From: an uncultured Anaerolineae bacterium
GTDB taxonomy: Bacteria; Chloroflexota; Anaerolineae; CAYNKW01
NCBI GenBank assembly: GCA_964397845.1
Contig: CAYNKW010000004.1
Coordinates: 1 to 44,088 of the forward strand
DNA: 44,088 nt
Direction: 5' to 3'
In this document: piece after piece, positions 7,323 to 38,464 of the stretch
How the letters are laid out: every line of letters begins with the position of its first letter
How positions within the stretch are numbered: position 1 is the stretch's first letter
Notes under the pieces: model-generated
Seen by the model: the letters and a program-made list of their open reading frames with translations, nothing else
The model's database searches: none
Told to the model about the DNA's origin: nothing
Position numbers and translations under genes: made by a program

Positions 7323-8243
7323 TTAATCATCTTTCAGAATCAGCGGCAGATAAGTTAGGTAGGGGTTGGCAATGACGATGACCATGGCGGTACTGGACTC
7401 GGCGCCCGCTTCGCTCAGTTCGGCGGTGTTGGTGAGAGCCCGGTGGTCACTGGTGGTGATGGTAATGATGTAACTGATGGTCACCTCCTGGCCTGCTGGC
7501 GGGGTATCGCTCCACGTCAGGCGGTGTTGATCGCTGTCATAATCAGGCATAACACTGGTGCCTTCCAACCCAAAGTTGCCTGGCGCGCTTACACCTGTAG
7601 ACAGCGTATCAGTGAGGGTGAGAGTGCTATGATTACCTAAAAAACTCAGGGTATAGGTGATGGCGTTGCCCTGGTAGCCGAAGGATGGAGTAGCGACCTT
7701 TTTGAAATAACGTACGGCCTGTATGGTGACGATAAGGTTTTGGATGTAGAAGAGGTCGCCTCTGACAAAGGCAGGGACGTCCAAGTATTTCAACAGTTCC
7801 TCTCGGTCTTCTTGGAGAATTAGGGCTTTGGCCTGAAATAAAGAGTTAGAGTCATATAGAGGCTGTATAACCCCTTCACAAAATGTCTGTTCTGTCTTTG
7901 TTTGAAACCAATAAGGAGCCACATAGTTATATTCATCAATGGCTTCCTGTATTTTTGCCAAAGCATTATCGTGCAGATATTGTCCCAGTTCGGGCACAAG
8001 GTATATAAAATTTCTGGCCACGTTTAGTGTTCGTCTGTAATCATAGTAGTCCGGCCAGGGCGCATCTTTGTCAAATTCTGTTACTCTCAGGGCAAGCAGC
8101 CTATCGAGCTCAGTCCTAATTTCAGTGGACTCGGGATATCCGGCTAGTTTTTCTAATTCGAGGTACCCCCAGTAGCCGGCGATATATGCATTATGCACAT
8201 GGACATTTTCTAACAAATAGGCATCAGAAGGCGGCGATTGCAA
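7323..8243 (-). CDS. C-terminal portion of the upstream beta-propeller protein (helical region + DUF11-like domain + YLPLILK tail); separated from it only by one in-frame TAG
   Basis: No signal peptide of its own. The frame is open from 8303 down to 7323. Ends ..TITTSDHRALTNTAELSEAGAESSTAMVIVIANPYLTYLPLILKDD*. Confidence 0.7.
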   Translation of the reverse strand: MQSPPSDAYLLENVHVHNAYIAGYWGYLELEKLAGYPESTEIRTELDRLLALRVTEFDKDAPWPDYYDYRRTLNVARNFIYLVPELGQYLHDNALAKIQEAIDEYNYVAPYWFQTKTEQTFCEGVIQPLYDSNSLFQAKALILQEDREELLKYLDVPAFVRGDLFYIQNLIVTIQAVRYFKKVATPSFGYQGNAITYTLSFLGNHSTLTLTDTLSTGVSAPGNFGLEGTSVMPDYDSDQHRLTWSDTPPAGQEVTISYIITITTSDHRALTNTAELSEAGAESSTAMVIVIANPYLTYLPLILKDD

Positions 8244-8303
8244 TCTCTCTTCACTGTTATCAAATATCTCTTTAGCTATGCCTGGTGATTCCCCTTCAAA
8301 AAC

Positions 8304-10517
8304 CTAGGCATACTTCCATAAGCCATAGAACATGTGCGGAGGATAGTGCCAGCCTTTATAAAAGCCACTCCATTCAGCTTTAGCAGGAAAATTAACTCGG
8401 TCTTCTTCTACTTCAGGAGGGAGATCAAAGATTTGACGAGAGGCACCGTCTTTCCAACCAATATGGGTATATGTGTAAGGAGGATAAGCCGCATATTCAT
8501 TCTGGAGATAAGTTTTTACAGTTTCTTGTTGGTTTTTAGGCAAATGGGGCAAGGCAAGAGATAGAATGTAAAGCGTATCTGAAGGATGATGCCAATAATC
8601 TATTAGATATTCGCCGGCACCACTTTTGGTTCTTTGGTCAAACAACCCAGAGCCCAGGTAACCTGGTCTTAAGTGACCAGCATCCAAGATCTTTTGTATC
8701 TCTTGGGACAATTGCTGTCTCAATTGTTCAGTGCTGATTGGGGTGATATTGGCATTCTGAACATTGACTGTTGGTGCCATTGGCAAACCCGTATAAGAAC
8801 CAGCATAATCCCCAAAGGCAATAATAGAGTTGCTTTTGTGCATATAGACTTTTCCCTTATATGGGACAGGAGGGTTCTGCTCACCGTGTAGGCCATAAAC
8901 TCCATTGACGCTTTCTTTGGCTCCCTTATACATGAGGTAGTCATTCGTGTCGTCTAAATCAAAGTACAATTCGTTATATCCAGGTATCTTGTCTTCTAAA
9001 TCATAACAGAAATAAGTCCATATTCTGTCTGGTTCTGAGAGTGGTTTGGTAATGTCGAAAGCTCCAGCCACGCGATCAGCGCAATGGAGCCAGTAGATGA
9101 GGTCACCACCGGCGGAATAGGCTATTGGCTCGTCCATAACGTTTCCCCATGAAGTAGGTATATCAAAAGATGAAGCGCCAAGTTCCCAACCAACGATGCA
9201 TCCAGAGGCAATATGAGGGTTAGATGTATAGTGAACTGGTTGGTGAAGCTTATTATCAGACCCTACTACCGGTGGATAACGATTGCCTGGCCCATGAGTA
9301 TGAAGCCAGGTGATAGGAGCATAGCTGATACCGGTAGTGCCATTTTCCCTTTGATACTCGAAAGTAAATTCCTCTCCTGTGTTTGCGCTCAGAACAAAAT
9401 AGGTTCTTCTCCAAGGTTTCTGCTCGTAATACTCAAGGATTTTGGTAACATCCATTGAACCATCAATTATTGGAGCAATAGTTTCCCCGGCAGGGATGCC
9501 ATTGGCAGTATACAGATCAGCTATTTCCAATCCTTGAATATCGGAGCTAGGACCTGGTTCGAGGGCTATACGGTAGTTATTGCTGCCGGCAAATATAACA
9601 TAATCTTCCTGCGTCTGAGGATCGGTGTAGACCACCGGCCACCAGGAGTGAAAACCGGCCCCAGGAAGCTTGGCCGATTTCCACACCAGTTCTCCTGTGT
9701 CGGCTGTCAGAGCATAGGCATGAGAGTCGTTAGAGGCAAAATAGATGGTGTTGCCCTTGTAGGCAGCCGAGAAAAGAACAGGGCCACCCGTTTTGAATTT
9801 CCAGAACAATGTAGCTGTGGTTCCGTTGTCCTCTATGGCATACATATAACCATCTCTGTTGCCGGCATAGACATAGGTATTACCCCCCAGATCAATAACA
9901 AGAGGGTTGGTTTGGAAGCCTTTTTCGGCTTCGAACGTCCAAATGGGTTGCCCAGTAAAGGCATCTATTGCGTGAATCTTGTGGTCGAATCCCCCTACAT
10001 ATGCCCTGCCATTGTGCACTGTTGGTGAATGGCCCAAGGGTAGTTCGGTTGGGTACACCCATCTCTCACTGCCTGTTTCGGCATCTATGGCATAAAGGCC
10101 TCTTGCTGTGGAGATATACAGGGTATCATGAGCAGCAATAATCTGCACCTTTTGAGAGATGTATGGCTCAATGGGTTTGTACCATATGGGGCTCAGTTTA
10201 CCTCTCACCTCTTCTGGTGTCCAAGAGGTTCTCTGGAGATTGGCGGCAACCATGGGCCAGTCACCTTCATCTACGATATCTGTGACTGTAGAAACAGTAT
10301 TGGCTGCCGCGTTGGTCTGGTAGTCCTTCCAGAAAGCCTTGGCTCCACTCGTGCCTTTACAGGCGAAACTCAAGTCCCCACGACACAATGTCGAGGCCGA
10401 TGCCGGTCTATGCGCAGCCATGCCCCACACCGCCAACAAGATAGCAGCGATGCTGACGATTGTGACGAACGCAATTCGTTTGCACCTCATTCTCTTCCTC
10501 CCTCGACTATCTCTCAA
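8304..10517 (-). CDS. Secreted/anchored PQQ-like (BamB-like) beta-propeller repeat protein; ends at an in-frame TAG
   Basis: N-terminal basic + hydrophobic signal MRCKRIAFVTIVSIAAILLAVWG. Repeated blocks of the type LYAIDAETGSERWVY, HAIDAFTGQPIWTF and YALTADTGELVWKS are typical of PQQ-like propellers. Confidence 0.8.
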   Translation of the reverse strand: MRDSRGRKRMRCKRIAFVTIVSIAAILLAVWGMAAHRPASASTLCRGDLSFACKGTSGAKAFWKDYQTNAAANTVSTVTDIVDEGDWPMVAANLQRTSWTPEEVRGKLSPIWYKPIEPYISQKVQIIAAHDTLYISTARGLYAIDAETGSERWVYPTELPLGHSPTVHNGRAYVGGFDHKIHAIDAFTGQPIWTFEAEKGFQTNPLVIDLGGNTYVYAGNRDGYMYAIEDNGTTATLFWKFKTGGPVLFSAAYKGNTIYFASNDSHAYALTADTGELVWKSAKLPGAGFHSWWPVVYTDPQTQEDYVIFAGSNNYRIALEPGPSSDIQGLEIADLYTANGIPAGETIAPIIDGSMDVTKILEYYEQKPWRRTYFVLSANTGEEFTFEYQRENGTTGISYAPITWLHTHGPGNRYPPVVGSDNKLHQPVHYTSNPHIASGCIVGWELGASSFDIPTSWGNVMDEPIAYSAGGDLIYWLHCADRVAGAFDITKPLSEPDRIWTYFCYDLEDKIPGYNELYFDLDDTNDYLMYKGAKESVNGVYGLHGEQNPPVPYKGKVYMHKSNSIIAFGDYAGSYTGLPMAPTVNVQNANITPISTEQLRQQLSQEIQKILDAGHLRPGYLGSGLFDQRTKSGAGEYLIDYWHHPSDTLYILSLALPHLPKNQQETVKTYLQNEYAAYPPYTYTHIGWKDGASRQIFDLPPEVEEDRVNFPAKAEWSGFYKGWHYPPHMFYGLWKYA

Positions 10518-18994: not shown

Positions 18995-19808
18995 TTCAAC
19001 AAACGGGCATGGTTCCCATACTGACGGCGATGTTGGACGACCCCAACCAAGAGTACGGCTTGGACGCTGGCACGGTCGTGGCCGGTTTGATCTACAACAT
19101 TCTGAGTTCGGAGCGGATTCGTCTGTACCGTTGGCACGGGGTCACAGCAAGGACCATCGTCCCGATCTGGTTCAATTGCTCTTCGGTGTGGTCATGAGTC
19201 GGGATGGCGTATTGGTCTCCGGCGAGATGGCCTCTGGTAATGAGCAAGACATGAAACTCAACGGCTATTGGATCACCCATATACGACAGCATCTTGGGCT
19301 GGACATCGGCCAGTTTCTGTTGTGCGTGGCCGATAGCGCCGCCGTCACTGAGGAGAACCTTCGCTTGTTCCGCTTGTTTCGCATGGACTTCATCTCTTGC
19401 TTGCCAGAACGATTCGGGCTGGCCGAGAGGCTGTTTACCCAGGCCCTGGCCGCCCAAAAACCATGGACGGAAGTGGGGGCCATCGGCCAAGGCAAGCACG
19501 CCTCACAGTATGAAGTGTGGGAGACCACGGCCGAGCTAGCCGGTGAGCGCTATCGCTTCTTGGTCGTGCGCTCCGACAGCTTGACAGCCCACCAGACCAA
19601 GACCTTGGAGCGGGCTATCGCTCGGGAGCAAGCGTCCCTCCAAAAGGCGCTGAAAGAGATGTCGAAACAGCGGTGGGACACACCGACTGATGCCGAACAG
19701 GCCCAGAGCCACTTTGACCAGACGCACAAGCCGCGCTATCACCACATAGGGTGGACTGTCATGCCCCAGATTGAATATCTCCCGCGGACAAAGCCTGGTC
19801 GGCCCTGA
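18937..19808 (+). mobile_element. IS1634/IS4-family transposase remnant (DUF4277-like N-terminus, internal deletion/frameshift, 3' truncated)
   Basis: GGAGGAGG precedes ATG 18937. MADGTLAYVANYHPLVGHLIQQTGMVPIL..GTVVAGLIYNILSSERIRLYR switches frame near 19130 into GHSKDHRPDLVQLLFGV .. VADSAAVTEENL .. YRFLVVRSDSL. It is too short and lacks the distal catalytic part. Confidence 0.75.
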
Positions 19809-20070
19809 TTATTGCCCAGCGAACCGGGGACACCTGGCATTTCCGCCCAGCACGTCCGCTGTCTAACAACCGGTGCCGGGTCCTGACTTTGGCGGGCTTC
19901 GGCCCTGAGATCTACTCATGGCAGGGCCGCTTGGTCCCGGAAAATCTCGGCTTGCCAGCACCGTAGGGTGCGGAATATGAGTCAAGTGGTCAGGAAACCA
20001 CAGCCAAAGAACAGAGCAGAGCCATGTCGCGAGCGAGCCAGGGCCCGGTGTGCAGCAGTGGTGAAGAATC

Positions 20071-20477
20071 GTGCGGTGGCAGAGGATCACCACCCTGGGG
20101 CCAGGGGGGGTCTTTGGCCTGTTTACTGCTGGTGTGGCGCTGGTGGCGGGGGTGAGCATCTACGTGCCCAGGTCCACCTGCCTCGCTCAGGCCCTGGCCA
20201 TGCAGGTGCTGCTGGGCCGGTGCGGTCATCCGGCCAGCCTCCGCATCGGTGTTGCCCGAAGCGAAGCGAGGCGGGACGATTACAAGCTCACGCATGGGTG
20301 GAAAGCGATGGCAGGATTGTGCTTGGTAACTCCAAAGACCTGGCGCGCTTATACCCCGTTGCCGCCGTTGGAGGGAGAAAGGCCATCCGGGCGCGTTGTG
20401 ATCGTTCTTTGAGATCGACTGGCAAACCCGGCCATGGGTCCGGGGGTTTGCTCATTGAGTTCTTGATTTCAGGTTGA
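20071..20477 (+). pseudogene. Lasso-peptide B2 / transglutaminase-like (Transglut_core3) protein, frameshifted by a 5-bp tandem duplication
   Basis: Frame A reads ..YVPRSTCLAQALAMQVLLGRCGHPASLRIGVARSE. Frame B reads SEAGRLQAHAWVESDGRIVLGNSKDLARLYPV. GAAGC is duplicated at 20258-20262 and 20263-20267; removing one copy restores ..IGVARSEAGRLQAHAWVE... Confidence 0.65.
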
Positions 20478-20515: not shown

Positions 20516-21046
20516 ATGCTGCACCGATTTGCTCTATTGCATCACCGGCCTCTGTTGCCAGCGCTGGGGGTCAGCGTACTGGCCATTCTGGTTGTGGCTG
20601 TCATAGGGCTGTCCCTTTCAGCTTCGGCCCAGGGCGTGCCAGAGCTAAGCGTCTCAAAGACCGCCAGCAAAATCCACGTGCACCCGAACGAATTGGTGAC
20701 CTACACTATCAGCCTGGAGAACGCAGGCACAGTAAGCGCGTCAGCAATGTTGACGGACACGGTTCCCTTCGGGGTCACCTACGTCCCAGGGAGCGCGACT
20801 GGCGGAGCGACCTATTCTGATGGCAAGGTGACCTGGTCGGGAACTGTGAAGCCGAGCGAAACTAGGGTGATCACTTTCCAGGTGATTGTGGCTGAGCCCG
20901 AAACGCTGGGGCCGTTGCCCATCGTCAATACGGCCTGTGCCGACGATGGTACAGACATGGTCTGTGACTGGATCGTGATCTACTCGCGCCGGTACAAGGT
21001 GTTCTTGCCTTGCATTACCAAGAACCACCGGCCGGGGCCACCATGA
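20516..21046 (+). CDS. Secreted DUF11 (conserved repeat domain) protein with a C-terminal FLPCITK tail
   Basis: ATG 20516 after AAAGGAGAAAG. Signal peptide ..VIGLSLSASAQG. SVSKTASKIHVHPNELVTYTISLENAGTVSASAMLTDTVPFGVTYVPGSATGG is typical of DUF11. Confidence 0.8.
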   Translation: MLHRFALLHHRPLLPALGVSVLAILVVAVIGLSLSASAQGVPELSVSKTASKIHVHPNELVTYTISLENAGTVSASAMLTDTVPFGVTYVPGSATGGATYSDGKVTWSGTVKPSETRVITFQVIVAEPETLGPLPIVNTACADDGTDMVCDWIVIYSRRYKVFLPCITKNHRPGPP

Positions 21047-21093
21047 CCTTGCCACGCACCAAAGCTGACTCACCCTGAAAGAAGGTATGCTAG

Positions 21094-22599
21094 ATGAAGC
21101 GGAGAGTAGTTCTTATGCTGTTGGTCGGGCTGCTGGCTGGCCTGTCAGGTATTCAGGGGGGCGTTTCTTCCCCAGCGCAAGGCCCTAAGAAGGGCGCGGC
21201 AACGACCAACCTCCTGCCAACCAGTGCCACAAGCGCGACGTTCTTGGCTCCGATGTCAGACACCTCTGCGAGTTCGCTTTACCCCTCGGCCTGCGATCGC
21301 TTCGGCGTGGGAGTGAACCTCGATTACGGCAGTGTGGACGACTACGATGTGGCGCGGCTCCATGCGGGCTGGTACGTGGACTGGCACACTCACCTGGCTC
21401 CTCCTCACCCCGCCGGGCTGGACTACATGCAGATGGTACAGACGTTGGGTGACACCTTCTCGCCCGACGAGGCGACACTGGCAGCCATCGCCGCTGCCAG
21501 CCCTGGCGCCACCTGGCTTATCGGCAACGAGCCGGACTGTATCTGGCAGGGCAATAGCACCCCGGATCAATACGCACAGGTCTACCACCAACTCTACACC
21601 TTTCTCAAAGCCCGCGATCCGACCTGTCGCGTGACCGTTGGCGGCATTGTCCAGGCCACCGATCTGCGCTTGCAGTGGTTGGACGCAGTCCTGGATGCCT
21701 ATCAGACGCGCTATGGCGAGGCCCTGCTGGTGGACCTGTGGAACATCCACACTTTCATCCTGCAGGAGAGGAGAGACGACTGGGGCGCCGAGATTCCCCC
21801 GGGCATCAACGCTAGCCAGGGGGAACTGTGGGGTGTTGAAGACCACGATAATATGACCTTCTTTGCCGAGCAAATCGTCCGTTTTCGCCAGTGGATGAAG
21901 GATCGCGGGGAACGTGACAAAGAACTTGTTGTCTCCGAATACGGCATCCTGATGCCGGATAGCCTCGGCTTTGACGAGACCCGTGTCCGAACCTTCATGG
22001 ACAGCACCTTTGACTACTTTACGACAGCGGTGGACTCTGAGTTAGGCTGCCCCGCCGATGGGAATCGCCTGGTGCAGCGCTGGGTCTGGTACAGCCTGAA
22101 CGACAAGCGATTTGAAGGGCATACCTCGCACAGCCACCTTTTCAACCCCGATACCAAAGAGATCACTCCGCTGGGCACAGACTTTGAGAACTATGTGACG
22201 CCGCTGTGTACCTCCTACGTGGATCTGGCTCCGGCAGCCATCACCTTTTCCCCAGCGCAGCCTCTGGCACTCGACGGCCTGCCGATCACGATCACCGTTA
22301 CGGCTGCGGTGCGCAACGCTGGGAATACAGACACGGCCAATGTGCCCCTCTATTTCTGGGTGGGCGATCCTGACCACCCCATCGGCAACGTGGAGACCAT
22401 CGGGGCGCTGGCGGCACGGTCGCTAGCCAGCGGATCGGTCGAGTGGCAGGGAGTGTCGAGTGGGTTATACACCGTTGGCGTGACGGTGGACGCCGGGGAC
22501 GTCATCGTTGAGTCGGATGAGAGCAATAATCAAGCCTCCGGCATCCTGCTGGTTGCCAGACACGCGACTTTTCTGCCACTCGTCGTCAAACAGCGGTAG
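21094..22599 (+). CDS. Secreted clan GH-A-like (beta/alpha)8 glycoside hydrolase + CARDB-like domain + FLPLVVK tail
   Basis: Signal peptide MKRRVVLMLLVGLLAGLSG. Candidate acid/base WLIGNEPD and nucleophile LVVSEYG. C-terminal ITVTAAVRNAGNTDTANV..VIVESDESNN is CARDB-like. Ends LLVARHATFLPLVVKQR*. Confidence 0.7.
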   Translation: MKRRVVLMLLVGLLAGLSGIQGGVSSPAQGPKKGAATTNLLPTSATSATFLAPMSDTSASSLYPSACDRFGVGVNLDYGSVDDYDVARLHAGWYVDWHTHLAPPHPAGLDYMQMVQTLGDTFSPDEATLAAIAAASPGATWLIGNEPDCIWQGNSTPDQYAQVYHQLYTFLKARDPTCRVTVGGIVQATDLRLQWLDAVLDAYQTRYGEALLVDLWNIHTFILQERRDDWGAEIPPGINASQGELWGVEDHDNMTFFAEQIVRFRQWMKDRGERDKELVVSEYGILMPDSLGFDETRVRTFMDSTFDYFTTAVDSELGCPADGNRLVQRWVWYSLNDKRFEGHTSHSHLFNPDTKEITPLGTDFENYVTPLCTSYVDLAPAAITFSPAQPLALDGLPITITVTAAVRNAGNTDTANVPLYFWVGDPDHPIGNVETIGALAARSLASGSVEWQGVSSGLYTVGVTVDAGDVIVESDESNNQASGILLVARHATFLPLVVKQR

Positions 22600-27288: not shown

Positions 27289-29337
27289 ATGGAGGTTGTT
27301 AATTTGAGAAACTCGCCAAAAAATGAGCGAGCGATGAGTAAATCAGTTACTGCTTTGGTGTGTGATATCCCAACACAAACCAAACCCACCATCACCAAGA
27401 TCCGCAGACTGCTAGCAGTACAGGGTTTGCTTTTGGGACTGTATCTGTTATGGGTTGCAGCGATCTTGCCGATCACCAGACTGACCGATTGGCCGTTCAT
27501 GCGTTGGGACTACTCCTACCACTATTCACAGGTCGCCGAAATCAGCGACCTCATGAGGACGCAGGGTGGTTCCTGGGGCTATAGCGACCTCTTTTTCGCC
27601 GGTTATCCACTCGGAATCATATCCAATTTGGGCTCCAAAGGGTGGACGTGGTTCGTTCATCTGCTGTTATACCTTTCTGTACCAACCGCACTTGCTTTCA
27701 ACCTGTATGTAGTGCTGTGGGTGGTACTGACGCCGCTATTGATCTACCGGGCCTGTCGCTGGTTTGGGCTGTCGCCTTCACAGGCACTAGTAGCTACAAT
27801 TGTGGCCATGACCTACTGGTGGACTTCGACTCTTTACTGGTTCTTCTACTTTGGCCTGATCTCTTTCCTGGTCAGCGTGCCGCTAGCCATGTTCAGCATA
27901 GCCGCGCTGTGCGCCTACGTCCGGGATGGGCGCTGGTGCCATGGGATCGTATTTGGGCTGGCTGCTGCCGTTTGTTGTTGGGTGCATGCCCTGTCGGTCA
28001 TCTTTCTGGTTACCGGCTGCGCGGTTGTCTATTTAACCCGGTTCCGACGGCTCGCCTTGAGGCAGCATGGTGCGTTGTTTCTACTGGGCAGTATCGCCGT
28101 AGTGGCGCAATGGCCCTGGATGGGGCCGCTTTTGGCAGTCAGGAAGTGGTTTGTCAAGATCAGCGGGCATCTGCTTTACTCGCAGCCGCATGGGTCGAGC
28201 GCGTTGCACCTGGATATGGTCAGCAGTATACAAGCCAAGCTACCGCTATTACTGGCGTGCGCTGGTGCAGTTTTGGTGAGTGCATTTCTCTGGCGACGCG
28301 AGCAGAAGGTGGCGTGGCTTTTTCTGATCACAGCGGTAGCCTTTCTCTTCGTCGGTATGCTCATCGAGACGCCATTACACCGGCTGTTCCTGGTCGGTAT
28401 GGTAGTGGGTGTGTATGCTTGGTGGCGTCGGCGGAAGTTAGTGTTGATCCTGCTCTTTTCCATCCTGCCAGCGGTACTACTGTTTCTTGGGTACTGGGGC
28501 ACAACATTTGCCGTATTGCAGCCAGCTCGCAACGTCCCTGTCGCCTACTTGTGGCTGGCGATTCCCACAGCAGTAGGAGGCCACTATGTGTACAACGTGA
28601 TACGGAGCAGGTCACGACACCGCCATATACTGGGTGCTGGCGTCGTTCTTCTAGCACTCAGTATATGGCCCGTAATCCCTCCTCAACACGTCAGAGTCTT
28701 CGCCCAGGAACCTATCACCCTGATCCAGCCACCCAGCCAGGAAGCAGAAAAGCTGGTCAACTGGCTGCAGGCCAACACCACTAGGGAAGGGCGGATCCTG
28801 TTTGAGGACTCTCGTTCCTGGCTGGTTGAACACAATGCGTCAGCAGGATACCTGGCTTATACCAGCCAACGAGCCTTCATTGGAGGCCCATTTCCGTGGG
28901 GCGGACCCGTCGACTTTGTGGACGGGCGCCCTTTCGGTCATCCCATTGAGACGATGACAACTTCTCAGATGGCTGACTACTTTGACCTCTACAATATCCA
29001 TTGGGTAATTGTCCACTCCCAGGCGAGCCGAACCTTCTTCGACGCCCGACCAGACCTAGTTGAACCTATTGAAGAGTTAAGTTTTGCCCGAATCTACCTG
29101 GTCAAGATACCCGGCAACCACTTCCTGGAAGGGATGGGCCAGTTGACTGTCCGCAATCATCAAATTGAGTTGTGGGATTTGCAAGGCTCCGAGATCGTAT
29201 TGAAGTATCATTGGGTCCCCAATCTGAAAAGCAGTCCTGAAGTCGTTATAGAAAGAGTGATGGTTTCACCCGATCCTCATGGGTTTATCAAGATCATTGC
29301 ACCCCCTGATCGGCTGACCATCCGGGTTGCACCTTGA
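27289..29337 (+). CDS. Large polytopic membrane protein with a C-terminal extracytoplasmic domain; possible GT-C/YfhO-like glycosyltransferase or polymerase
   Basis: About 12 or more hydrophobic segments over roughly the first 450 aa, then a soluble ~220-aa domain. The first loop WDYSYHYSQVAEISDLMRTQGGSWGYSDLFFAGYPLG is reminiscent of YfhO/PTPS-related membrane proteins. Function is not established. Confidence 0.5.
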   Translation: MEVVNLRNSPKNERAMSKSVTALVCDIPTQTKPTITKIRRLLAVQGLLLGLYLLWVAAILPITRLTDWPFMRWDYSYHYSQVAEISDLMRTQGGSWGYSDLFFAGYPLGIISNLGSKGWTWFVHLLLYLSVPTALAFNLYVVLWVVLTPLLIYRACRWFGLSPSQALVATIVAMTYWWTSTLYWFFYFGLISFLVSVPLAMFSIAALCAYVRDGRWCHGIVFGLAAAVCCWVHALSVIFLVTGCAVVYLTRFRRLALRQHGALFLLGSIAVVAQWPWMGPLLAVRKWFVKISGHLLYSQPHGSSALHLDMVSSIQAKLPLLLACAGAVLVSAFLWRREQKVAWLFLITAVAFLFVGMLIETPLHRLFLVGMVVGVYAWWRRRKLVLILLFSILPAVLLFLGYWGTTFAVLQPARNVPVAYLWLAIPTAVGGHYVYNVIRSRSRHRHILGAGVVLLALSIWPVIPPQHVRVFAQEPITLIQPPSQEAEKLVNWLQANTTREGRILFEDSRSWLVEHNASAGYLAYTSQRAFIGGPFPWGGPVDFVDGRPFGHPIETMTTSQMADYFDLYNIHWVIVHSQASRTFFDARPDLVEPIEELSFARIYLVKIPGNHFLEGMGQLTVRNHQIELWDLQGSEIVLKYHWVPNLKSSPEVVIERVMVSPDPHGFIKIIAPPDRLTIRVAP

Positions 29338-29462: not shown

Positions 29463-31991
29463 ATGAAGCAAGCAGCAATTATTGTGACCTCAATTTTGGC
29501 ACTGGCGGCGTGCATCGCTGAGGTGCCCGCTGTTCAGACCAATTACGACTTTGTAGCCGACTTTGACGCCGTGGTTGCCCAACCGCCACCAGCCTACGGA
29601 ACCAATCTCTGGTGGACCGATGAGGAGGCCGCGCTGTGGTCGTCACGCTGGGCTGAACTGGGGCCTTCGCTGGTGCGTGTGCCCATCTCTCAGGCGATAG
29701 TCGAGCCTGTAAACGACAACGGCGACCCCAATGTGATCAACTGGGACGGTTTTTTGCTGGATACACCCATCAACGTGTCAAGTATCAGTCGCACGGTCAC
29801 TTATCAAGCCTGGTTCCAGGCCCTGCGTGATCAACCGACCCTGAACATCTTGATTTACTTTGCGTATCTGGCACCCTGGCTAAGCGATAACTCTCCTCAT
29901 CCCGGATCCCCATTTCCATTCGACGTCGCTCCCCACCCGCCTAACGACCTGGCTGAATACCGTGAGTTCATTGAGGCTGTGCTGCGCTACCTGGTCGAGA
30001 CGCTGGATTTTCCGCCGGAGCGGATCATGGTTGAGGCGATGAATGAGCCAGACCTGGGCTGCGGCGTCGATCCGGTGGTGGCATGTTTTTGGCAGGATTG
30101 GACAATGGATGACATCGCCGCCGTCGTTCGTGTCACCCACGAGGCGATCCAGTCTGTCAATGCCGAGATCCCCTTCATAGGTCTGGCCGAGTGCCTCGGT
30201 ACGAGCATTGTGCGCGACCTACTGAATAACTACCCAGAGGGAGCCTATCTGGATGGGCTAACATACCATTACTATTCGCCTTCAGGATATAACCTGAACG
30301 CGGTTCTGAGTCGGGCGGCAGCGCTGGCCCCCTTTGGCTTGCCGATCTACCTGGACGAGTATGGTAGTCGGCAGTATCAGAGTGAGGGTATTGATGGGGC
30401 TCTGTGGCATAGCTGGGCTCTGGCAACCTTGTGGGAGGCGGGCATCGCGCCGCTGCAACATCCTATCAGCGAGTGGCCGCTGGCGGGTGAACCTTACAAC
30501 AGCATGGGCCTCTTTAGGGACTGGCGTGGGGACTGGGAGCGCAAACCCGCGTACTGGGTCTACGCCAACTTCTTTCACCTTGTGGGCGGCGGCGAGATCA
30601 TCTCTCACACCGCTCCTTCTGGGGTGGACGTCCTGACGGCACGTCGGGTCGTCACCGACGAGGTCCAAGTAACCTTCTGGGTAGTCAACCGAGGAGGTAC
30701 AACACTGGCCGACCGGTCCTTCGCAGTCTACAATTTTCCCTGGCAGGAGGCGACGTTACGTGTCTACGACAACCTGGTCGGCTCAACCCCGGTACTGACG
30801 ACGACGGTCAGTGGGTCCCCCCTGGTCTTTAACGCTACCTTGCCAGCGCGTAGCTCCCGCACCTTTGTCCTAAGTGAAGGGCAATCACACGGTTCGCTCG
30901 ACCGCGTTGTGCTTGCTCCTGACTTGGCCACGCGCATGGCAGGGCGGACCATATCCTACACCCTCATCGCTTACGATATCTACGACAACGACTGGGATGT
31001 GACAGCTGACGGTGTTTACACCGTTACTCCTGACGCTGGCGGTGACTGGGTGGGGAATGTCTACACCACTGAACTGGCAGGCACGTGGACAGTGACGGCG
31101 ACATACGGCGGCGAGGTTGACACCGCTACGCTGACTGTGAACCGTGCTCCTCTGGACTACGTGGACCTGACGCCGGCCACGGCTATGCAGATGGCAGGGC
31201 AGTCTATCTCCTACACGTTGACTGCCTACGATACTTACAGCAACGACTGGGATGTCACCATCTCCGGCACTTACACGATCGAGCAGGCCGCTGGCGGCGA
31301 CTGGACGGGCAATATTTACACTACCGAAGTGGCCGGTACTTGGGTTGTCACCGGGAGCTATGGCGGCGAGAGTGACACAGCAATGCTGACAGTATTGTTG
31401 GCAGATCTGAATCATATTGTCATCTCACCCACCTCCGCTATCATCATGGCTGGGGAGGCGCAGACCTATACGTCAGAGGCGTTTGACGCTCAACACAACA
31501 GTCTGGGTGACGTGGCGACGTTGACGACATTCATTATCTCACTCCCTGCGGGCGGCGCATGGAGCGGCAACGTGTACACATCTGAGGTAGCAGGCACATG
31601 GATAGTGACTGGGGCCTACGGCAGCGAGGTTGACACCGCTACACTAACGGTGGACCACGCCCTCCTGGACTATGTGGACTTGGTGCCTGCCGCAGCTATA
31701 CGTATGGCAGGGCAGTCGATTTCTTATACGTTGACCGCCTACGACGCCTACGGTAACGACTGGGATGTCACTGCCTCCGGCGTTTACATGATTGAACAGG
31801 GTGCTGGTGGTCACTGGAAGGGCAACGTTTACACTACCGAGGTGACCGGTACCTGGACCGTGACCGGCACTTGGACCGCGGCCGGTACCTGTACCCATAG
31901 GAGGGAGAGTGACACTGCCATCTTGACAGTTCGGATGCCGGCAGCCCATGTGTATTTGCCGCTTATCCTGGGGAAGGATATGTTGCCTTAG
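29463..31991 (+). CDS. Secreted (possibly lipoprotein) clan GH-A-like hydrolase + four tandem Ig-like repeats + YLPLILGK tail
   Basis: Signal peptide with LAAC. VEAMNEPD and IYLDEYGS are candidate catalytic Glu motifs. Four ~85-aa repeats. Ends LTVRMPAAHVYLPLILGKDMLP*. Confidence 0.75.
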   Translation: MKQAAIIVTSILALAACIAEVPAVQTNYDFVADFDAVVAQPPPAYGTNLWWTDEEAALWSSRWAELGPSLVRVPISQAIVEPVNDNGDPNVINWDGFLLDTPINVSSISRTVTYQAWFQALRDQPTLNILIYFAYLAPWLSDNSPHPGSPFPFDVAPHPPNDLAEYREFIEAVLRYLVETLDFPPERIMVEAMNEPDLGCGVDPVVACFWQDWTMDDIAAVVRVTHEAIQSVNAEIPFIGLAECLGTSIVRDLLNNYPEGAYLDGLTYHYYSPSGYNLNAVLSRAAALAPFGLPIYLDEYGSRQYQSEGIDGALWHSWALATLWEAGIAPLQHPISEWPLAGEPYNSMGLFRDWRGDWERKPAYWVYANFFHLVGGGEIISHTAPSGVDVLTARRVVTDEVQVTFWVVNRGGTTLADRSFAVYNFPWQEATLRVYDNLVGSTPVLTTTVSGSPLVFNATLPARSSRTFVLSEGQSHGSLDRVVLAPDLATRMAGRTISYTLIAYDIYDNDWDVTADGVYTVTPDAGGDWVGNVYTTELAGTWTVTATYGGEVDTATLTVNRAPLDYVDLTPATAMQMAGQSISYTLTAYDTYSNDWDVTISGTYTIEQAAGGDWTGNIYTTEVAGTWVVTGSYGGESDTAMLTVLLADLNHIVISPTSAIIMAGEAQTYTSEAFDAQHNSLGDVATLTTFIISLPAGGAWSGNVYTSEVAGTWIVTGAYGSEVDTATLTVDHALLDYVDLVPAAAIRMAGQSISYTLTAYDAYGNDWDVTASGVYMIEQGAGGHWKGNVYTTEVTGTWTVTGTWTAAGTCTHRRESDTAILTVRMPAAHVYLPLILGKDMLP
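30897..31935 (+). repeat. Four tandem ~255-nt coding repeats (Ig-like/Big-type domains) within the 29463 gene
   Basis: Each unit reads LD(Y/R)V(D/V)L.P....MAG(Q/R)(S/T)ISYTL.AYD.Y.NDWDVT..G.Y......GG.W.GN(V/I)YTTE(V/L)AGTW.VT..YGGE.DTA.LTV. Units 2 and 4 are also visibly similar at the nucleotide level. Confidence 0.85.
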
Positions 31992-33649: not shown

Positions 33650-33704
33650 CGCTGGGTACACTCCGAGCTCATCTACCCAAGTGGAAGTCGTCAAGAGGGG
33701 ATGG

Positions 33705-34790
33705 ATGTCAATTAAGAAACTTGTGCGTCTTCTTGCCTGGCGTCACTGGGGTCTGATCCGCTACAACTCGGTCTGGCAGAACGTGGCGGCGCTGTTCTAC
33801 GTCGGTCTGGCGCGTCAGTGGTTCAGCATGGACTACGTCCGCGACATGGGAGTGTTCCTTGTCCTCAGTATGACCTTAACGGCCTATGGCTATCTGATCA
33901 ATGACCTGGCCGACGTCGAACTCGACCGGCTGGCCGGCAAACCAAACGCATTTCACGGGATGAGCCGCACAAAAGCGTCGCAGGTGGTGGTGGCGGTCTT
34001 TGGCGTGATGGTGGCGTGCGGCCTGCCCTTCGCCCGCCGGCCCAATTTCCTGCCCTTGTGGATCGTCTGGGCGCTGGTGGCGACCTTCTATTCCCTGCCG
34101 CCGGTGCGTCTCAAGGAGCGCGGTGTATTGGGCTTGGTCGCCACCATCGCTGCGCAGCAGCCACTACCCGCTGCGATGGCCTTTGCTGCCCTGGGTCACC
34201 TGCGCACGTGGGGAGCGCTGGCTTTCATCGCCTACATCACCCTGCGGGGCATCTGCTCCGACGTGGGCCACCAGATGCGTGACCGGGAGCGGGATGAAGC
34301 CGCTGGTGCGACCACCTTCGCTGTCCGCCTGGGCCACGCGGCCATGACCCGCATCTACGGCCTCAGCTTGGAACTGGAGGCGCTCCTGCTGGGGGTTGTT
34401 CTCATCGTCTTGGTAGTAGACGTGCCGTCTGTCCATCTGGGGGGCTGGTCGGTCGCTCCCGCCTGGCCACTGCTGATGGCCTACCTGGTGCTGCTGTCGT
34501 TCACCCTGGGGCGTGCCTGGGTGCGGTTGGAACGTGACGAGTGGGTGGACCCTTACGATGAATCCCCTGAAGGTCCCCCACGCGACCTGCTGCACCTGAT
34601 CCACCATCCCTTCCCGACGGTCGTTCTCCCCCTCTACTTAGCCATCTGGCTGACGATCTACTATTGGCCTAATCTCATCTTCACCTTGGGGCTGGTCTTG
34701 CTGTACAGGTTGTACGATCCTGGTCGCTGGGCGGGGAGCTGGCCTATGCGGACACTGCTGGCCCGCCTGGGACAGCGGGAGAAGGTGTGA
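33705..34790 (+). CDS. UbiA-superfamily prenyltransferase (polytopic membrane protein)
   Basis: ATG 33705 after GAGGGG. First Asp-rich motif YLINDLADVELDRLAGKPN (NDxxDxxxD). Second motif QMRDRERDEAAGATTFAV. About 8-9 TM segments. Confidence 0.85.
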   Translation: MSIKKLVRLLAWRHWGLIRYNSVWQNVAALFYVGLARQWFSMDYVRDMGVFLVLSMTLTAYGYLINDLADVELDRLAGKPNAFHGMSRTKASQVVVAVFGVMVACGLPFARRPNFLPLWIVWALVATFYSLPPVRLKERGVLGLVATIAAQQPLPAAMAFAALGHLRTWGALAFIAYITLRGICSDVGHQMRDRERDEAAGATTFAVRLGHAAMTRIYGLSLELEALLLGVVLIVLVVDVPSVHLGGWSVAPAWPLLMAYLVLLSFTLGRAWVRLERDEWVDPYDESPEGPPRDLLHLIHHPFPTVVLPLYLAIWLTIYYWPNLIFTLGLVLLYRLYDPGRWAGSWPMRTLLARLGQREKV

Positions 34791-37700
34791 TGTTCGACGT
34801 CATCGTCATTGGCGCTGGGCCGGCCGGCTCGTCGGCCGCTTGCGAGATTGCCCGGGGGGGCTGGCGCGTCGCCCTGCTGGAACGCGGTGCGTATCCTGGC
34901 CAGCGCAATGTCTGCGGCGGAGGCATTGAGGGCGCGGACGTGGAGGAGATGGGCCTGCCGAACGACCTGATCCACAAGCGGATGGTGCGCCGCGAGCACT
35001 ACTTCCCCTGGGGCGTCACCACGCTCATTACCCCTCACGTCACTACCCTTCGGCGTGATCTGGACTGCTGGTTGGCCGAACAGGCTGTCGCCGCTGGCGC
35101 AGAACTTCTTACCCGGACCTGGGCCCGTGCTGTCGTCCGCGAGGCAACCGGGCGGGTGATGGTGACTGTCACCGACTTGACGGATCATCGCCAGATCACC
35201 CATCGTACCCGCTTGGTCGTCTTTGCCGACGGGCCGAACACGCTGGCCCCGCGTTCTGGAAACCTGGGCTTTGTCCGTGCGCCAACCACTGCTGCAGTGG
35301 GCCTGATTTACGAACTTGCCTGGCCGAACACGCTGTTGGATCACTATGAAGTTCACTTCGGAGCTTGCTTCAGCCCGTGGGGTTATGCCTGGGTCTTCCC
35401 TAAGCGCGATCTGCTCAACGTCGGCATCACCATCCTGCCCTCGCGGCGGGGCAGCCGTCATCTGGAGGCACGACTGCAAGCCTTCATTGAGAGTCGGCCC
35501 GACCTGCGCGAACGGCCGATTGTCCGCCGCGCTGGTGCTCACATTCCGGTTGTCCCGGCGGCGCGTATCTACGATGATTCGATGTTGGCCGTTGGAGATG
35601 CGGCAGGGATGGTAGAAGCGCTGACCGAAGCAGGTATCGCAAATGCCGTGGCAGGTGGTCGGCTCGCTGGCCAGGTGGCGTGTGAGGCGCTGGCAGTGGG
35701 TGATCTCTCGGCGGCCTTTCTATCGCGCTACCAGAGCCGCTGGCAGGCGACCTTCCGCTATCGAACGATTCGCTTCCAGTCGCGTCTCACCCGCGCACTC
35801 CTGCCCTTCAGCTGGCTTGATGGGAATTTCTACCCCAAAGTGATGCAAGTCCTGTTCCTGGGCGGCCAATTGAGCCGCAGGCAGAAACTGCGTCTGTTGG
35901 CCTACCCGGCGTTGAAGCCGCGCAAGCGATTGCTCTTGGGATCAGTGGGAGCGGGGGGGGCGAACCTGATGGCTGAGTTCATCTTGCATTTTGATGAGAT
36001 TGAGGAGGCCCGGCGCAACCAGGCAGGTGGCAAGGGCTACGCACTCGCCCGGCTCTGTCAGGCGGGGTTTCCCGTACCACCGGGCTTCATTGTTGCGACC
36101 GATGCCTACCGTGCCTTCGTCACCGCCAACGGCCTGGACACCCTCGTCGCCGCCGCTCTGGCAGATGACGACCCGGCGGCAGCCTCGGCACGTATGAGGC
36201 CAGCCTTCGAGGAGGTGAAAATGCCACCCGCCATCGCCGCTGCCATCCGCGATGCTTACCTGGCGCTGGGGGCGGACGAGGTGGCGGTCCGCTCCTCGGC
36301 CCTCGCCGAAGACGATGAGGCCGCTTCCTTCGCTGGCCAGTATGAGACCTCCTTGGGCATCGTCGGCTCCGACGCACTGCTGGCGGCGGTGCGCCGCTGC
36401 TGGGTCTCTCTCTGGAGCGAGCGGGCGCTGGCCTATCGCCGCTGCCTGGGTTTTAAGGGCGACGCGCCGGCAATGGCCGTCGTCGTGCAGAGGATGGTGC
36501 CTGCTGTTCAGGCTGGCGTTGCCTTTACCCTCGACCCCCTCAGCGGCCGTCGTGACGTGGTCGTCGTCGAGGCCGTCGCCGGGGGGGGCGAGGCGCTGGT
36601 AAGCGGTCGGGCCACGTTATACCGCTACGTCATCCAGCGGGGAAGTCCCTATCCAGATTCCGGGGATGGGGTGCTCGATGTTGCCCGGTTGGCGGCTGTC
36701 GTCCGCCTGGCGCAGGAGGTGGAGTCCTGGGCGGGTCAGCCCCAGGACGTGGAGTGGGCGCTGGGCGATGCCGGGCGCGTGCACCTTCTTCAGGCACGGC
36801 CGATCACCACCGCTTCAAGAAACCAGGTTTTTTCTGAAAAACCTGGTTTCTGCGAGGTTGTTACCCGCTGGACCCGCGACAACGTCGGAGAGGTGATACC
36901 GGATCCGGTCACGCCGCTCAGTTGGTCGGTGCTTGACCCCCTGGGCAACCGTTCTTTCACGGGCGTGTTGCGCCGCCTGGGCGTGGGCGATTACTCAGCC
37001 GCTGACCTGTTTGGCCGCTTCTACGGCCGGGTCTACTTCAACCAGACCTTCTTCCAGGCGATATTGGGCCACTTCTACTTCTCGCGCACCAGTTGGCAAG
37101 CCATTCCCCGGCTGGCACTGACGGCCCTGCGAGCATTCCTGTTGCTGCGCCGCCTGCCAGGGGAGAGCGAGAGAGCCATCGGAGCGATCCTGGAGTGGCG
37201 CCGCTCTGAGGAGGGGCTGAACCTGGCGGCTCTGACCCCGGCCGACGTACTGGACCGGTTGGCCGATTGGCGCCGCCTGGGCGCTGCGGCGATGGAGGTT
37301 CACTTGGCCATGACCGTGATGGGTGACTTGCTCTACCAGACGCTGGACAAACTGCTGGCCCGTTGGGGTGACGGGATGACCACCGTGGCTGCTCTGACGA
37401 CTGGACTCACGGGGGTGCGTAGCGCCGAGGCCGGTCAGGCCTTGGCCGCTCTGGCCCAACAGACTTGCCAGGATGACAATCTGCGTGCCCTGGTGCTGAC
37501 GACGACCCCTGAAGCGCTCCCGGCCCGGCTGGCCGAGACGGAGGCGGGACAGGCGATGTGGGCCCGGATCGAGGCTTTCCTGGCCAAGCACGGCCACAGC
37601 GCGGCACAAGAGTTCGAGTTGGCCACGCCTCGCTGGTGCGATTCCCCGGCGATCATCCTGAGTGCGCTCCAGGCGCAGGTGCGCGCCGGTGCGGAGAGGC

Positions 37701-38464
37701 CTGTTGCCGATCCGTCCACTGCTCGTCTGGCGGCCATCGCCCGGATCGAAAATCGGCTAGGTCCGCTGAAACGCTGGCTTTTCTGCCGCCTGTTGCATCA
37801 GGCGCAGATCTTCACCGTTGCCCGCGAGAATCTCAAGTACCATTTCGTCATCGCCCATAGTCACCTGCGCGATCTCTACCTTGCCTTGGCGGCGCATCTC
37901 GTTGCGGCCGGGCAGTTGACATGTGCAAAGGATATCTTTTTCCTGACCGCTGACGGGGTCGCGGCCCTGGTCGAGGGGAGGCTGGCGTCTGGTGAGGGCC
38001 GGGAGCGTGTAGCCGAGCGTCGCCAGGCGTGGGAGGCTGACCGAAGGGCCGTGCCGCCCTCGTCTTTCGACCAACTGACCGACGGTCGCCTGCGTCCGGT
38101 AGCGCCGTCCGTCGCGCCCGGCAGCGACGGCGGCCAGTTGCTGCGCGGATTGGCCGCCAGTCCTGGCTCATACATCGGGCAGGCTCGCGTCCTGCACACT
38201 CCAGCAGATGGCGCTGGCCTGGAACCGGGCGAGGTATTGATTGCGCCGGCCACCAGCCCTGGGTGGGCGCCCCTGCTCCTTTCGGCGGGCGCTCTGGTCA
38301 CCGAGATTGGCGGCACGTTGTCCCACGGCGCGATCATCGCCCGGGAGTATGGCCTGCCTGCCGTGCTCAACGTCGCCGACGCGACGCGCTGCATTCGCAC
38401 CGGTCAACTTGTTCATGTGGATGGATCCGCAGGCTTCGTCCGACTGCTAGAGGAAGTGACGTGA
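34790..38464 (+). CDS. Fusion protein: geranylgeranyl-reductase-family FAD oxidoreductase (aa ~1-375) + PEP-synthase/rifampin-phosphotransferase-like dikinase (ATP-grasp PPDK_N domain, ~400-aa middle domain, His-swivel PEP-utilizer domain)
   Basis: TGATG overlap with the ubiA-like stop. FDVIVIGAGPAGSSAA .. GDAAGMV; NQAGGKGYALARL .. VAVRSSALAEDDEAASFAGQYET .. VQRMV; C-terminal GLAASPGSY..GEVLIAPATSPGWAPLL..TEIGGTLSHGAIIAREYGLPAV. There is no C-terminal PEP/pyruvate TIM-barrel domain. Confidence 0.85.
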   Translation: MFDVIVIGAGPAGSSAACEIARGGWRVALLERGAYPGQRNVCGGGIEGADVEEMGLPNDLIHKRMVRREHYFPWGVTTLITPHVTTLRRDLDCWLAEQAVAAGAELLTRTWARAVVREATGRVMVTVTDLTDHRQITHRTRLVVFADGPNTLAPRSGNLGFVRAPTTAAVGLIYELAWPNTLLDHYEVHFGACFSPWGYAWVFPKRDLLNVGITILPSRRGSRHLEARLQAFIESRPDLRERPIVRRAGAHIPVVPAARIYDDSMLAVGDAAGMVEALTEAGIANAVAGGRLAGQVACEALAVGDLSAAFLSRYQSRWQATFRYRTIRFQSRLTRALLPFSWLDGNFYPKVMQVLFLGGQLSRRQKLRLLAYPALKPRKRLLLGSVGAGGANLMAEFILHFDEIEEARRNQAGGKGYALARLCQAGFPVPPGFIVATDAYRAFVTANGLDTLVAAALADDDPAAASARMRPAFEEVKMPPAIAAAIRDAYLALGADEVAVRSSALAEDDEAASFAGQYETSLGIVGSDALLAAVRRCWVSLWSERALAYRRCLGFKGDAPAMAVVVQRMVPAVQAGVAFTLDPLSGRRDVVVVEAVAGGGEALVSGRATLYRYVIQRGSPYPDSGDGVLDVARLAAVVRLAQEVESWAGQPQDVEWALGDAGRVHLLQARPITTASRNQVFSEKPGFCEVVTRWTRDNVGEVIPDPVTPLSWSVLDPLGNRSFTGVLRRLGVGDYSAADLFGRFYGRVYFNQTFFQAILGHFYFSRTSWQAIPRLALTALRAFLLLRRLPGESERAIGAILEWRRSEEGLNLAALTPADVLDRLADWRRLGAAAMEVHLAMTVMGDLLYQTLDKLLARWGDGMTTVAALTTGLTGVRSAEAGQALAALAQQTCQDDNLRALVLTTTPEALPARLAETEAGQAMWARIEAFLAKHGHSAAQEFELATPRWCDSPAIILSALQAQVRAGAERPVADPSTARLAAIARIENRLGPLKRWLFCRLLHQAQIFTVARENLKYHFVIAHSHLRDLYLALAAHLVAAGQLTCAKDIFFLTADGVAALVEGRLASGEGRERVAERRQAWEADRRAVPPSSFDQLTDGRLRPVAPSVAPGSDGGQLLRGLAASPGSYIGQARVLHTPADGAGLEPGEVLIAPATSPGWAPLLLSAGALVTEIGGTLSHGAIIAREYGLPAVLNVADATRCIRTGQLVHVDGSAGFVRLLEEVT

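Follow-up and report, generated by a model that had tools for sequence, protein, structure and literature searches.

The YLP-box is a short peptide motif that is already curated by NCBI as a putative sorting motif. It is represented in NCBIfam by two models, NF050076.1 (sort_motif_YLP; 11 positions, cut-off of 15 bits) and NF053834.1 (ultrashort_CTERM; 10 positions, cut-off of 10 bits), which share the description 'YLP-box putative sorting motif-containing protein'. Here we describe four protein tails from a 44,088-nucleotide stretch of the genome of an uncultured Anaerolineae bacterium of the Chloroflexota (contig CAYNKW010000004.1, positions 1 to 44,088; hereafter the window), relate them to the YLP-box, and consider where the box occurs in the phylum and what it may do. 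The phylum is plentiful in soils and sediments as well as in hot springs and wastewater plants, but its cell envelope is poorly understood.

PEP-CTERM signals are typically found in polysaccharide loci. PEP-CTERM and the YLP-box are both C-terminal tags on proteins with signal peptides, the tags of the window also lie in a polysaccharide locus, and the position is interchangeable between the two, as described below for a DUF11 family. However, the PEP-CTERM has three parts (PEP motif, transmembrane helix and Arg cluster), occurs at the C-terminus only and is cleaved by an exosortase embedded in the membrane, whereas the YLP-box comprises 10-12 residues, lacks a helix and occurs at several positions. 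The LPXTG signal of sortase substrates shares the Leu-Pro pair and the C-terminal location on surface proteins, and both signals suit cells whose outer membrane is minimal or absent. The YLP-box differs from it in lacking the Thr-Gly, the hydrophobic helix and the charged tail, and in the interchange of Lys and Arg. The CAAX box is likewise an ultrashort C-terminal recognition element without a transmembrane segment, and it shows that short signals can direct enzymatic processing; it is cytoplasmic, Cys-dependent and strictly terminal, whereas the YLP-box lies outside the cytoplasm and lacks an invariant nucleophile. The functional analogy that we favour is with SLH, LysM, GW and dockerin-cohesin modules. 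These are position-independent additions, sometimes repeated and set on flexible linkers, that are carried by many unrelated enzymes, although each of them folds as a domain of 40-80 residues and binds a known ligand, in contrast to a peptide of 10-12 residues.

The four tails of the window

When the tails alone were compared with NCBIfam release 20, NF050076.1 and NF053834.1 were matched. The tails share with these models the consensus ..V-Y-L-P-L-[IV]-x-[KR]-N-Y and the location at the extreme C-terminus of exported proteins. With NF050076 the tails of proteins 2 and 4 scored 12.1 and 12.5 bits, and those of proteins 1 and 3 were unmatched. Orthologues score higher at the same position (NF050076 / NF053834): 16.3 / 15.8 bits for P0246 and 15.6 / 13.5 bits for P0255 in the family of protein 1, 16.8 / 14.8 bits for P0006 in that of protein 2, and 17.6 / 15.5 bits for P0135 in that of protein 4, all of them passing both models. 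One substitution costs several bits because the models have only 10-11 positions. With orthologues of three of the four proteins passing the cut-offs at the same position, we take the window tails to be copies of the YLP-box. A first-pass annotation of the window had presented them as an undescribed signal, a claim superseded by the NCBIfam entries. For the window itself the result is an ordinary one, a curated motif gaining four more instances, of which one belongs to a disrupted gene.

The same annotation had set the tails apart from LPXTG, PEP-CTERM, GlyGly-CTERM and PGF-CTERM signals, and this holds: they match none of these and have no transmembrane helix. The PEP-CTERM model TIGR02595 gave no match to the window tails at E up to 10, and no hydrophobic run of helix length follows the motif; the positive control, P0257, scored 23.4 bits against a cut-off of 16. 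The GlyGly-CTERM, PGF-CTERM and MYXO-CTERM models likewise gave no match to the tails at E up to 10, and no transmembrane segment was seen. At the place of an LPXTG the tails read LPCIT, LPLVV, LPLIL and LPLIL, with Thr-Gly absent and 2-7 residues following the Lys. No Pfam model was found for the tails.

All four tails are present in the sequence exactly as they had been quoted. The ending [FY]LP[LC][IV]x(G)K closes four open reading frames (ORFs), and in the translations the stop lies 2-7 residues past the Lys. A six-frame scan of the window with a loosened pattern returned the four tails, 4-9 residues from the stop when the count starts at the core match of five residues; the remaining matches in long ORFs were just four internal ones. 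From amino-acid frequencies we estimate that about 0.002 matches of this C-terminal kind would arise by chance in about 35 genes. The core consensus [YF]-L-P-[LIV]-[IV]-x-[KR], preceded by a hydrophobic residue, describes VFLPCITK, TFLPLVVK, VYLPLILGK and TYLPLILK, the first of these loosely only, with Cys and Thr within the core. A profile of our own, built from tails that had not been seeded by the DNA search patterns, ranked protein 4 best, protein 2 second and protein 3 third among all six frames of the window, and gave protein 1 a background score. The codons of the core differ among the copies (TTC TTG CCT TGC ATT; TTT CTG CCA CTC GTC; TAT TTG CCG CTT ATC; TAT CTG CCG CTG ATT). The tails are thus conserved at the protein level and not as a DNA repeat, and a translated DNA repeat was ruled out as their source.

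The proteins and their tails are as follows.

20516..21046, + strand: protein 1, a 176-amino-acid exported DUF11 protein with a diverged YLP-box tail (..RRYKVFLPCITKNHRPGPP*), from translation and DUF11 / B_ant_repeat matches
21002..21022, + strand: YLP-box core FLPCITK of protein 1, a weak variant, from the six-frame scan
21094..22599, + strand: protein 2, a 501-amino-acid exported Glyco_hydro_cc hydrolase with CARDB and a YLP-box tail (..ARHATFLPLVVKQR*), from translation and domain matches
22570..22590, + strand: YLP-box core FLPLVVK of protein 2, below the NF050076 cut-off of 15 bits
29463..31991, + strand: protein 3, an 842-amino-acid exported protein with a YLP-box tail (..AAHVYLPLILGKDMLP*), from translation
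31953..31976, + strand: YLP-box core YLPLILGK of protein 3, a perfect YLPLIL with an extra Gly before the Lys, from translation and the six-frame scan
7323..10517, - strand: protein 4, one gene of about 1,064 codons interrupted by an in-frame TAG, from reading frame and homologue coverage
8304..8306, - strand: the TAG that splits protein 4, Gln or Glu in homologues, from an alignment of 40 homologues
7332..7352, - strand: YLP-box core YLPLILK of protein 4 (..NPYLTYLPLILKDD*), below the NF050076 cut-off of 15 bits

Four signal-peptide-bearing proteins had been counted in the window. Proteins 1-3 are intact and have their own signal or lipoprotein-like N-terminus, and this part of the count stands; the ORF at 7323..8243 (- strand) has none, and the signal of protein 4 lies in its upstream part. 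Homologues carry the source names Anaerolineae, Chloroflexota or Thermoflexales.

The tail of protein 1, FLPCITK, has no NCBIfam match, and it is assigned to the YLP-box by orthology only. Canonical boxes stand at the same position in its orthologues (AVYLPLIMRNY.., KVYLPIVTKNY.. and KIYLPLIARRD), and two of the three that were tested pass the NCBI cut-offs. In this small DUF11 family (P0244-P0253) a second conserved element, ..Y.P.PPWPW..P, follows the YLP-box, and the window copy retains only NHRPGPP of it.

In the family of protein 2, at least 45 of 120 homologues, which are named Anaerolineae, end in the tail by a strict pattern, and in homologues without CARDB it comes straight after the hydrolase domain. 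An AlphaFold2 model of protein 2 (54 sequences; mean predicted local distance difference test score, pLDDT, 89; predicted TM-score 0.82) places the final CARDB strand at residues 480-488 and models residues 489-501 as coil. Towards the end of the protein the block mean of pLDDT drops from 94 to 77 and then to 42, with a mean of 77 for residues 491-500. The tail as the last strand of the Ig-like domain was ruled out by this coil and by copies elsewhere that are flanked by Pro/Thr linkers.

Protein 3 combines a TIM-barrel-like N-terminal part and four Ig-like repeats with a lipoprotein-like LAAC signal and the YLP-box, and a Pfam search of it gave no domain match. Its tail had no NCBIfam match, which is probably accounted for by the inserted Gly. 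The start of the protein (29463..29530, + strand: MKQAAIIVTSILALAACIAEV) resembles a lipoprotein signal with an L-A-A-C lipobox, and on this reading protein 3 may carry an N-terminal lipid in addition to the C-terminal box. Directly upstream lies a 682-amino-acid polytopic membrane protein with a C-terminal soluble domain (27289..29337, + strand). It has no Pfam or NCBIfam match and resembles in shape the GT-C glycosyltransferases or polymerases, a putative likeness.

Protein 4 comprises a signal peptide, a PQQ beta-propeller, a helical region, a DUF11-like module and the YLP-box. The ORF at 7323..8243 (- strand) is in frame with the ORF at 8304..10517 (- strand), which encodes the signal peptide and the propeller. 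A query spanning the junction is covered to 99-100% by homologues of 1,000-1,026 amino acids, and at the position of the TAG the 40 aligned homologues have Glu in 18 cases and Gln in 14, the two closest reading KYAQVF. The two ORFs are therefore one gene, and the TAG is either a CAG-to-TAG nonsense mutation (a pseudogene) or a sequencing error. Nearly all homologues that have the DUF11-like module terminate in a YLP-box, and a shorter architecture without the module is also without the box.

Distribution and position of the box in Chloroflexota

Back-translated patterns for YLPLILK and YLPLVLR were scanned against one genome per species for 185,579 species. Among the matches listed, to which the counts of this section refer, 27 of 120 loci in one scan and 44 of 120 in the other are Chloroflexota by title, a phylum that we take to be a small minority of the scanned collection. 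These loci belong to Anaerolineae, Thermoflexia / Thermoflexales, Chloroflexia and Ardenticatenaceae. In long ORFs (at least 100 in-frame codons upstream of the match) of Chloroflexota, 47 matches lie within 10 residues of the stop and 18 elsewhere; in phyla confidently labelled otherwise, none lies within 10 residues of the stop and 38 lie elsewhere (Fisher p = 1e-14). The first-pass annotation had guessed that similar endings occur in other Chloroflexota, and indeed they are widespread in the phylum. The stop is most often 0-3 residues past the Lys/Arg, and nine of 49 C-terminal copies end right at Lys or Arg. The flanks extend the consensus to [YF]-[RK]-[VIL]-Y-L-P-L-[IV]-L-[KR]-[NG]-[YF].

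Instances that were not seeded by the patterns number 12 in 342 genes of the Chloroflexota loci, eight of them C-terminal, and three in 975 genes of the other loci, none C-terminal. By a crude test, a signal-peptide-like N-terminus is present in 46 of 70 motif proteins and in about 30% of all genes of the same loci. About 3-4% of the genes in the sampled loci are tagged, among them many that encode large enzymes and adhesin-like proteins. The motif genes cluster, as in two adjacent giant proteins (L029) and in a group of three genes (L063). The motif is lineage-specific and is found on exported proteins across Anaerolineae, Thermoflexia and Chloroflexia. Proteins with a C-terminal YLP-box outside labelled Chloroflexota were seen on a 1.9-kb contig labelled Nitratifractor (L171) and on two labelled 'uncultured bacterium' (L141 / L142). 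These are probably mis-binned or unlabelled Chloroflexota contigs, and they were excluded from the statistics.

The name 'ultrashort_CTERM' suggests a strictly C-terminal signal, and the tail had been described in the window as an extreme C-terminal one. This restriction does not hold in the phylum. While 72% of the long-ORF copies are C-terminal, 18 of 65 (about 28%) are internal or lie just behind a signal peptide, often with a Pro/Thr linker at either side. The box lies 15-60 residues after the signal peptide in two adjacent paralogues at L025 and in proteins of L103, L096 and L157. In L109, L072 and L103 it is interdomain and bracketed by Pro/Thr linkers. Tandem boxes (YLPLILKNY..PT..YLPLVLRDY) occur in L055, in frame -1 at about residues 2420-2470 of a giant beta-helix protein of more than 2,666 amino acids, where they are separated and trailed by Pro/Thr linkers and then by a CARDB-like domain. 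Two orthologous exported proteins (L047:2477-4423 and L091:794-2776, both - strand), with a beta-propeller followed by a di-haem-peroxidase-like region, have an identical YLPLILK in a low-complexity insertion inside the propeller, with different flanking residues. Because internal, linker, tandem and propeller-insertion copies occur, we regard the box as a short linear motif displayed on flexible segments. The coil beyond the last CARDB strand in the model of protein 2 accords with this, and the motif thus lies outside the folded domains.

The domains that precede the box suggest that it may take the place of an anchor. Domains named 'choice-of-anchor' precede different C-terminal sorting signals in different lineages, according to the NCBIfam convention. 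The model NF041518 ('choice-of-anchor Q') scored above cut-off in seven of ten tested YLP-tailed proteins from other loci, and in five of the ten the domain stops 10-14 residues before the protein end. In these five the box holds the position of the classical C-terminal anchors of other phyla. In addition, P0257, a distant DUF11 homologue of protein 1, has a true PEP-CTERM end in the slot where the protein 1 family has a YLP-box. The sorting or anchoring role proposed in the first-pass annotation is plausible in the light of these two observations.

Gene neighbourhood

The window is a locus for polysaccharide biosynthesis, with genes for a Wzy_C protein, several glycosyltransferases (GT4 and GT2), a flippase, the priming transferase Bac_transf, a UDP-GlcNAc 2-epimerase and a Wzz / tyrosine-kinase protein, and its annotation contains no exosortase-like gene. 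A link between the tail and the glycan polymer had been suggested from this setting. It does not extend to the box in general, as glycan genes were not enriched among the most frequent neighbour families of 109 genes at 27 other loci, and it stands only for the DUF11 and glycoside hydrolase-CARDB (GH-CARDB) genes. In the relative L242 the gene table gives the order Wzz/kinase, DUF11 (YLP), GH-CARDB (YLP). In the relative L241, whose GH-CARDB gene also belongs to a polysaccharide locus, a Wzy_C gene precedes that gene and a YLP-tailed DUF11 gene is absent upstream. Contigs of equal length for the two genes suggest that the DUF11 and GH-CARDB pair is adjacent in further relatives. The DUF11 and GH-CARDB proteins are probably polymer-processing enzymes that happen to bear the general tag of the phylum.

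A Pfam census of the 109 neighbour genes at the 27 Chloroflexota loci revealed no recurrent partner family. The commonest was the ABC transporter, with four of the 109, and none of sortase, exosortase, rhomboid or CPBP protease was among the most frequent families. Two candidate partners within the window were rejected. The only protease-like ORF (19968..20477, + strand) is reduced to a degenerate lasso-peptide B2 / transglutaminase-like remnant that adjoins a fragment of an IS1634-family transposase (19131..19808, + strand; 99.6 bits, just below the cut-off of 100). The other, the 682-amino-acid membrane protein that precedes protein 3, is without any family match; neither candidate is credible as a partner. 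The transposase fragment and the lasso-B2-like remnant sit between the Wzz/kinase gene and the DUF11 gene, and this region looks like an insertion scar because the two genes are adjacent in L242.

Two further genes of the window were recorded. A fusion of 1,225 amino acids (34787..38464, + strand) joins a geranylgeranyl-reductase-like N-terminus, dependent on flavin adenine dinucleotide, to PPDK_N and PEP-utilizer mobile domains, an unusual architecture. It lies at the edge of the glycan locus, flanked by a UbiA prenyltransferase and a weak CrtC-like ORF (33681..34790 and 38263..39558). A signal-peptide protein of 776 amino acids (39741..42071, + strand) has a Golvesin C-terminal domain (PF25275, E = 5e-32) and no YLP-box.

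Possible roles of the box

We propose that the tails, as copies of the YLP-box, would be exposed as peptides after Sec export, and that some component of the cell envelope would recognise the exposed peptide and so hold the protein at the cell surface. The proteins that the tag would mark in the polysaccharide locus of the window are the small DUF11 protein, the PQQ-propeller protein and two glycoside-hydrolase-like enzymes, and they are probably polymer-processing enzymes held at the surface. More generally, the YLP-box would be the tag of a surface-display system specific to Chloroflexota, distinct from sortase, exosortase and rhombosortase, and captured by a putative envelope receptor or enzyme. 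We advance this tentatively, as a proposal that comes close to an even prospect. Cryo-electron tomography of filamentous Chloroflexota has revealed an outer layer whose nature 'remains enigmatic' and which has no lipopolysaccharide (PMC7332563), and such a layer makes a phylum-specific mechanism plausible. The putative receptor or enzyme perhaps sits in this lipopolysaccharide-free layer.

As to how the box would be read, we favour, with reserve, non-covalent capture, with the box as a docking tag instead of a sortase-type signal that is cut and transferred. Such capture is supported by the occurrence of the box at either end of proteins, in linkers and in tandem, and by the many proteins that end at Lys/Arg and leave nothing to cleave off, as well as by the interchange of Lys and Arg.

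Several observations weigh against these proposals. The window's own tails score below the NCBI cut-offs, two of them being unmatched, and no recurrent partner family emerged from the neighbour census. The two genome scans list at least 120 loci each and are samples and not censuses. Literature searches yielded no paper on a bacterial YLP-box, the sole match to the peptide strings being to the frog temporins (FLPLI...), taken as coincidence. The C-terminal preference of 72% is equally expected of a processed C-terminal signal. In addition, seven hydrophobic residues would bind weakly on their own by a rough estimate from published hydrophobicity scales, and non-covalent retention would consequently need a specific receptor, which is hypothetical.

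The strongest competitor is an enzyme-processed signal, in which a dedicated extracytoplasmic protease or transpeptidase would cut within or after the box and attach the protein to an envelope component. This would be a sortase- or exosortase-like system minus the membrane-spanning retention segment, with a wall polymer, a lipid or another molecule as the target. The labels 'putative sorting motif' and 'ultrashort CTERM' given by the NCBI curators point in this direction, as do the C-terminal preference, the replacement of classical processed anchors after choice-of-anchor Q and DUF11 domains, and the residues past the Lys/Arg, which vary in sequence and length like a leaving group. However, there is no transmembrane helix to hold the substrate at a membrane enzyme, and many copies terminate exactly at Lys/Arg. 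The interchange of these two residues implies that the Lys is not an obligatory nucleophile. Cleavage at the post-signal-peptide, internal and tandem copies would discard or separate functional domains, and sortase, exosortase, rhomboid and CPBP genes are missing from the most frequent families of the 109 neighbours. We consider an enzyme-processed signal rather unlikely.

A direct hydrophobic anchor, in which the box would insert into the interface of the cytoplasmic membrane or into the atypical outer layer with no protein partner, is improbable. Its composition would fit, with Tyr/Phe, four or five aliphatic residues and Pro bracketed by Arg/Lys; the enigmatic outer layer without lipopolysaccharide (PMC7332563) would offer a site, and tandem copies could strengthen binding. 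But the conservation of Y-L-P-L is far more specific than generic hydrophobicity requires, about seven residues give by our own estimate too little energy for proteins of 500-2,000 amino acids, and protein 3 already has a lipoprotein-type signal.

Very improbable is the absence of any sorting role, the box then serving structure, folding or the delimitation of domains (for example as a cap strand or a block to proteolysis) and merely happening to be common at domain ends. The box does often come straight after the beta-rich DUF11, CARDB and choice-of-anchor Q domains, and the moderate model confidence at residues 491-500 of protein 2 could mean packing on the domain surface. Against this, the tail is modelled as coil, Pro/Thr linkers isolate the box on both sides in several proteins, and the box follows unrelated folds, including the hydrolase domain directly where CARDB is absent. 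Moreover, it is restricted to a single phylum, whereas these domain families are present without it elsewhere. Finally, chance, compositional coincidence or a translated DNA repeat, suggested by the shortness of the motif and by exact heptapeptides that turn up by chance in other phyla, is already refuted by the four tails seen against about 0.002 expected, the differing codons, the C-terminal placement in Chloroflexota and not in other phyla, and the retention of the tail across orthologues of 45-75% identity.

What is new to us are the approximately 28% of copies that are not C-terminal, the choice-of-anchor Q slot with the exchange for PEP-CTERM, and the lack of a linked enzyme gene among the neighbours in the census. 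Regular-expression or hidden Markov model calls restricted to the C-terminus miss about one quarter of the copies, and the NCBI cut-offs overlook diverged copies such as those of the window. That the box has no transmembrane segment and is free in its position speaks against a simple transfer of the sortase model. The tag may offer a handle on the surface proteome of the Chloroflexota, on the partner that reads it, and for the engineering of surface display.

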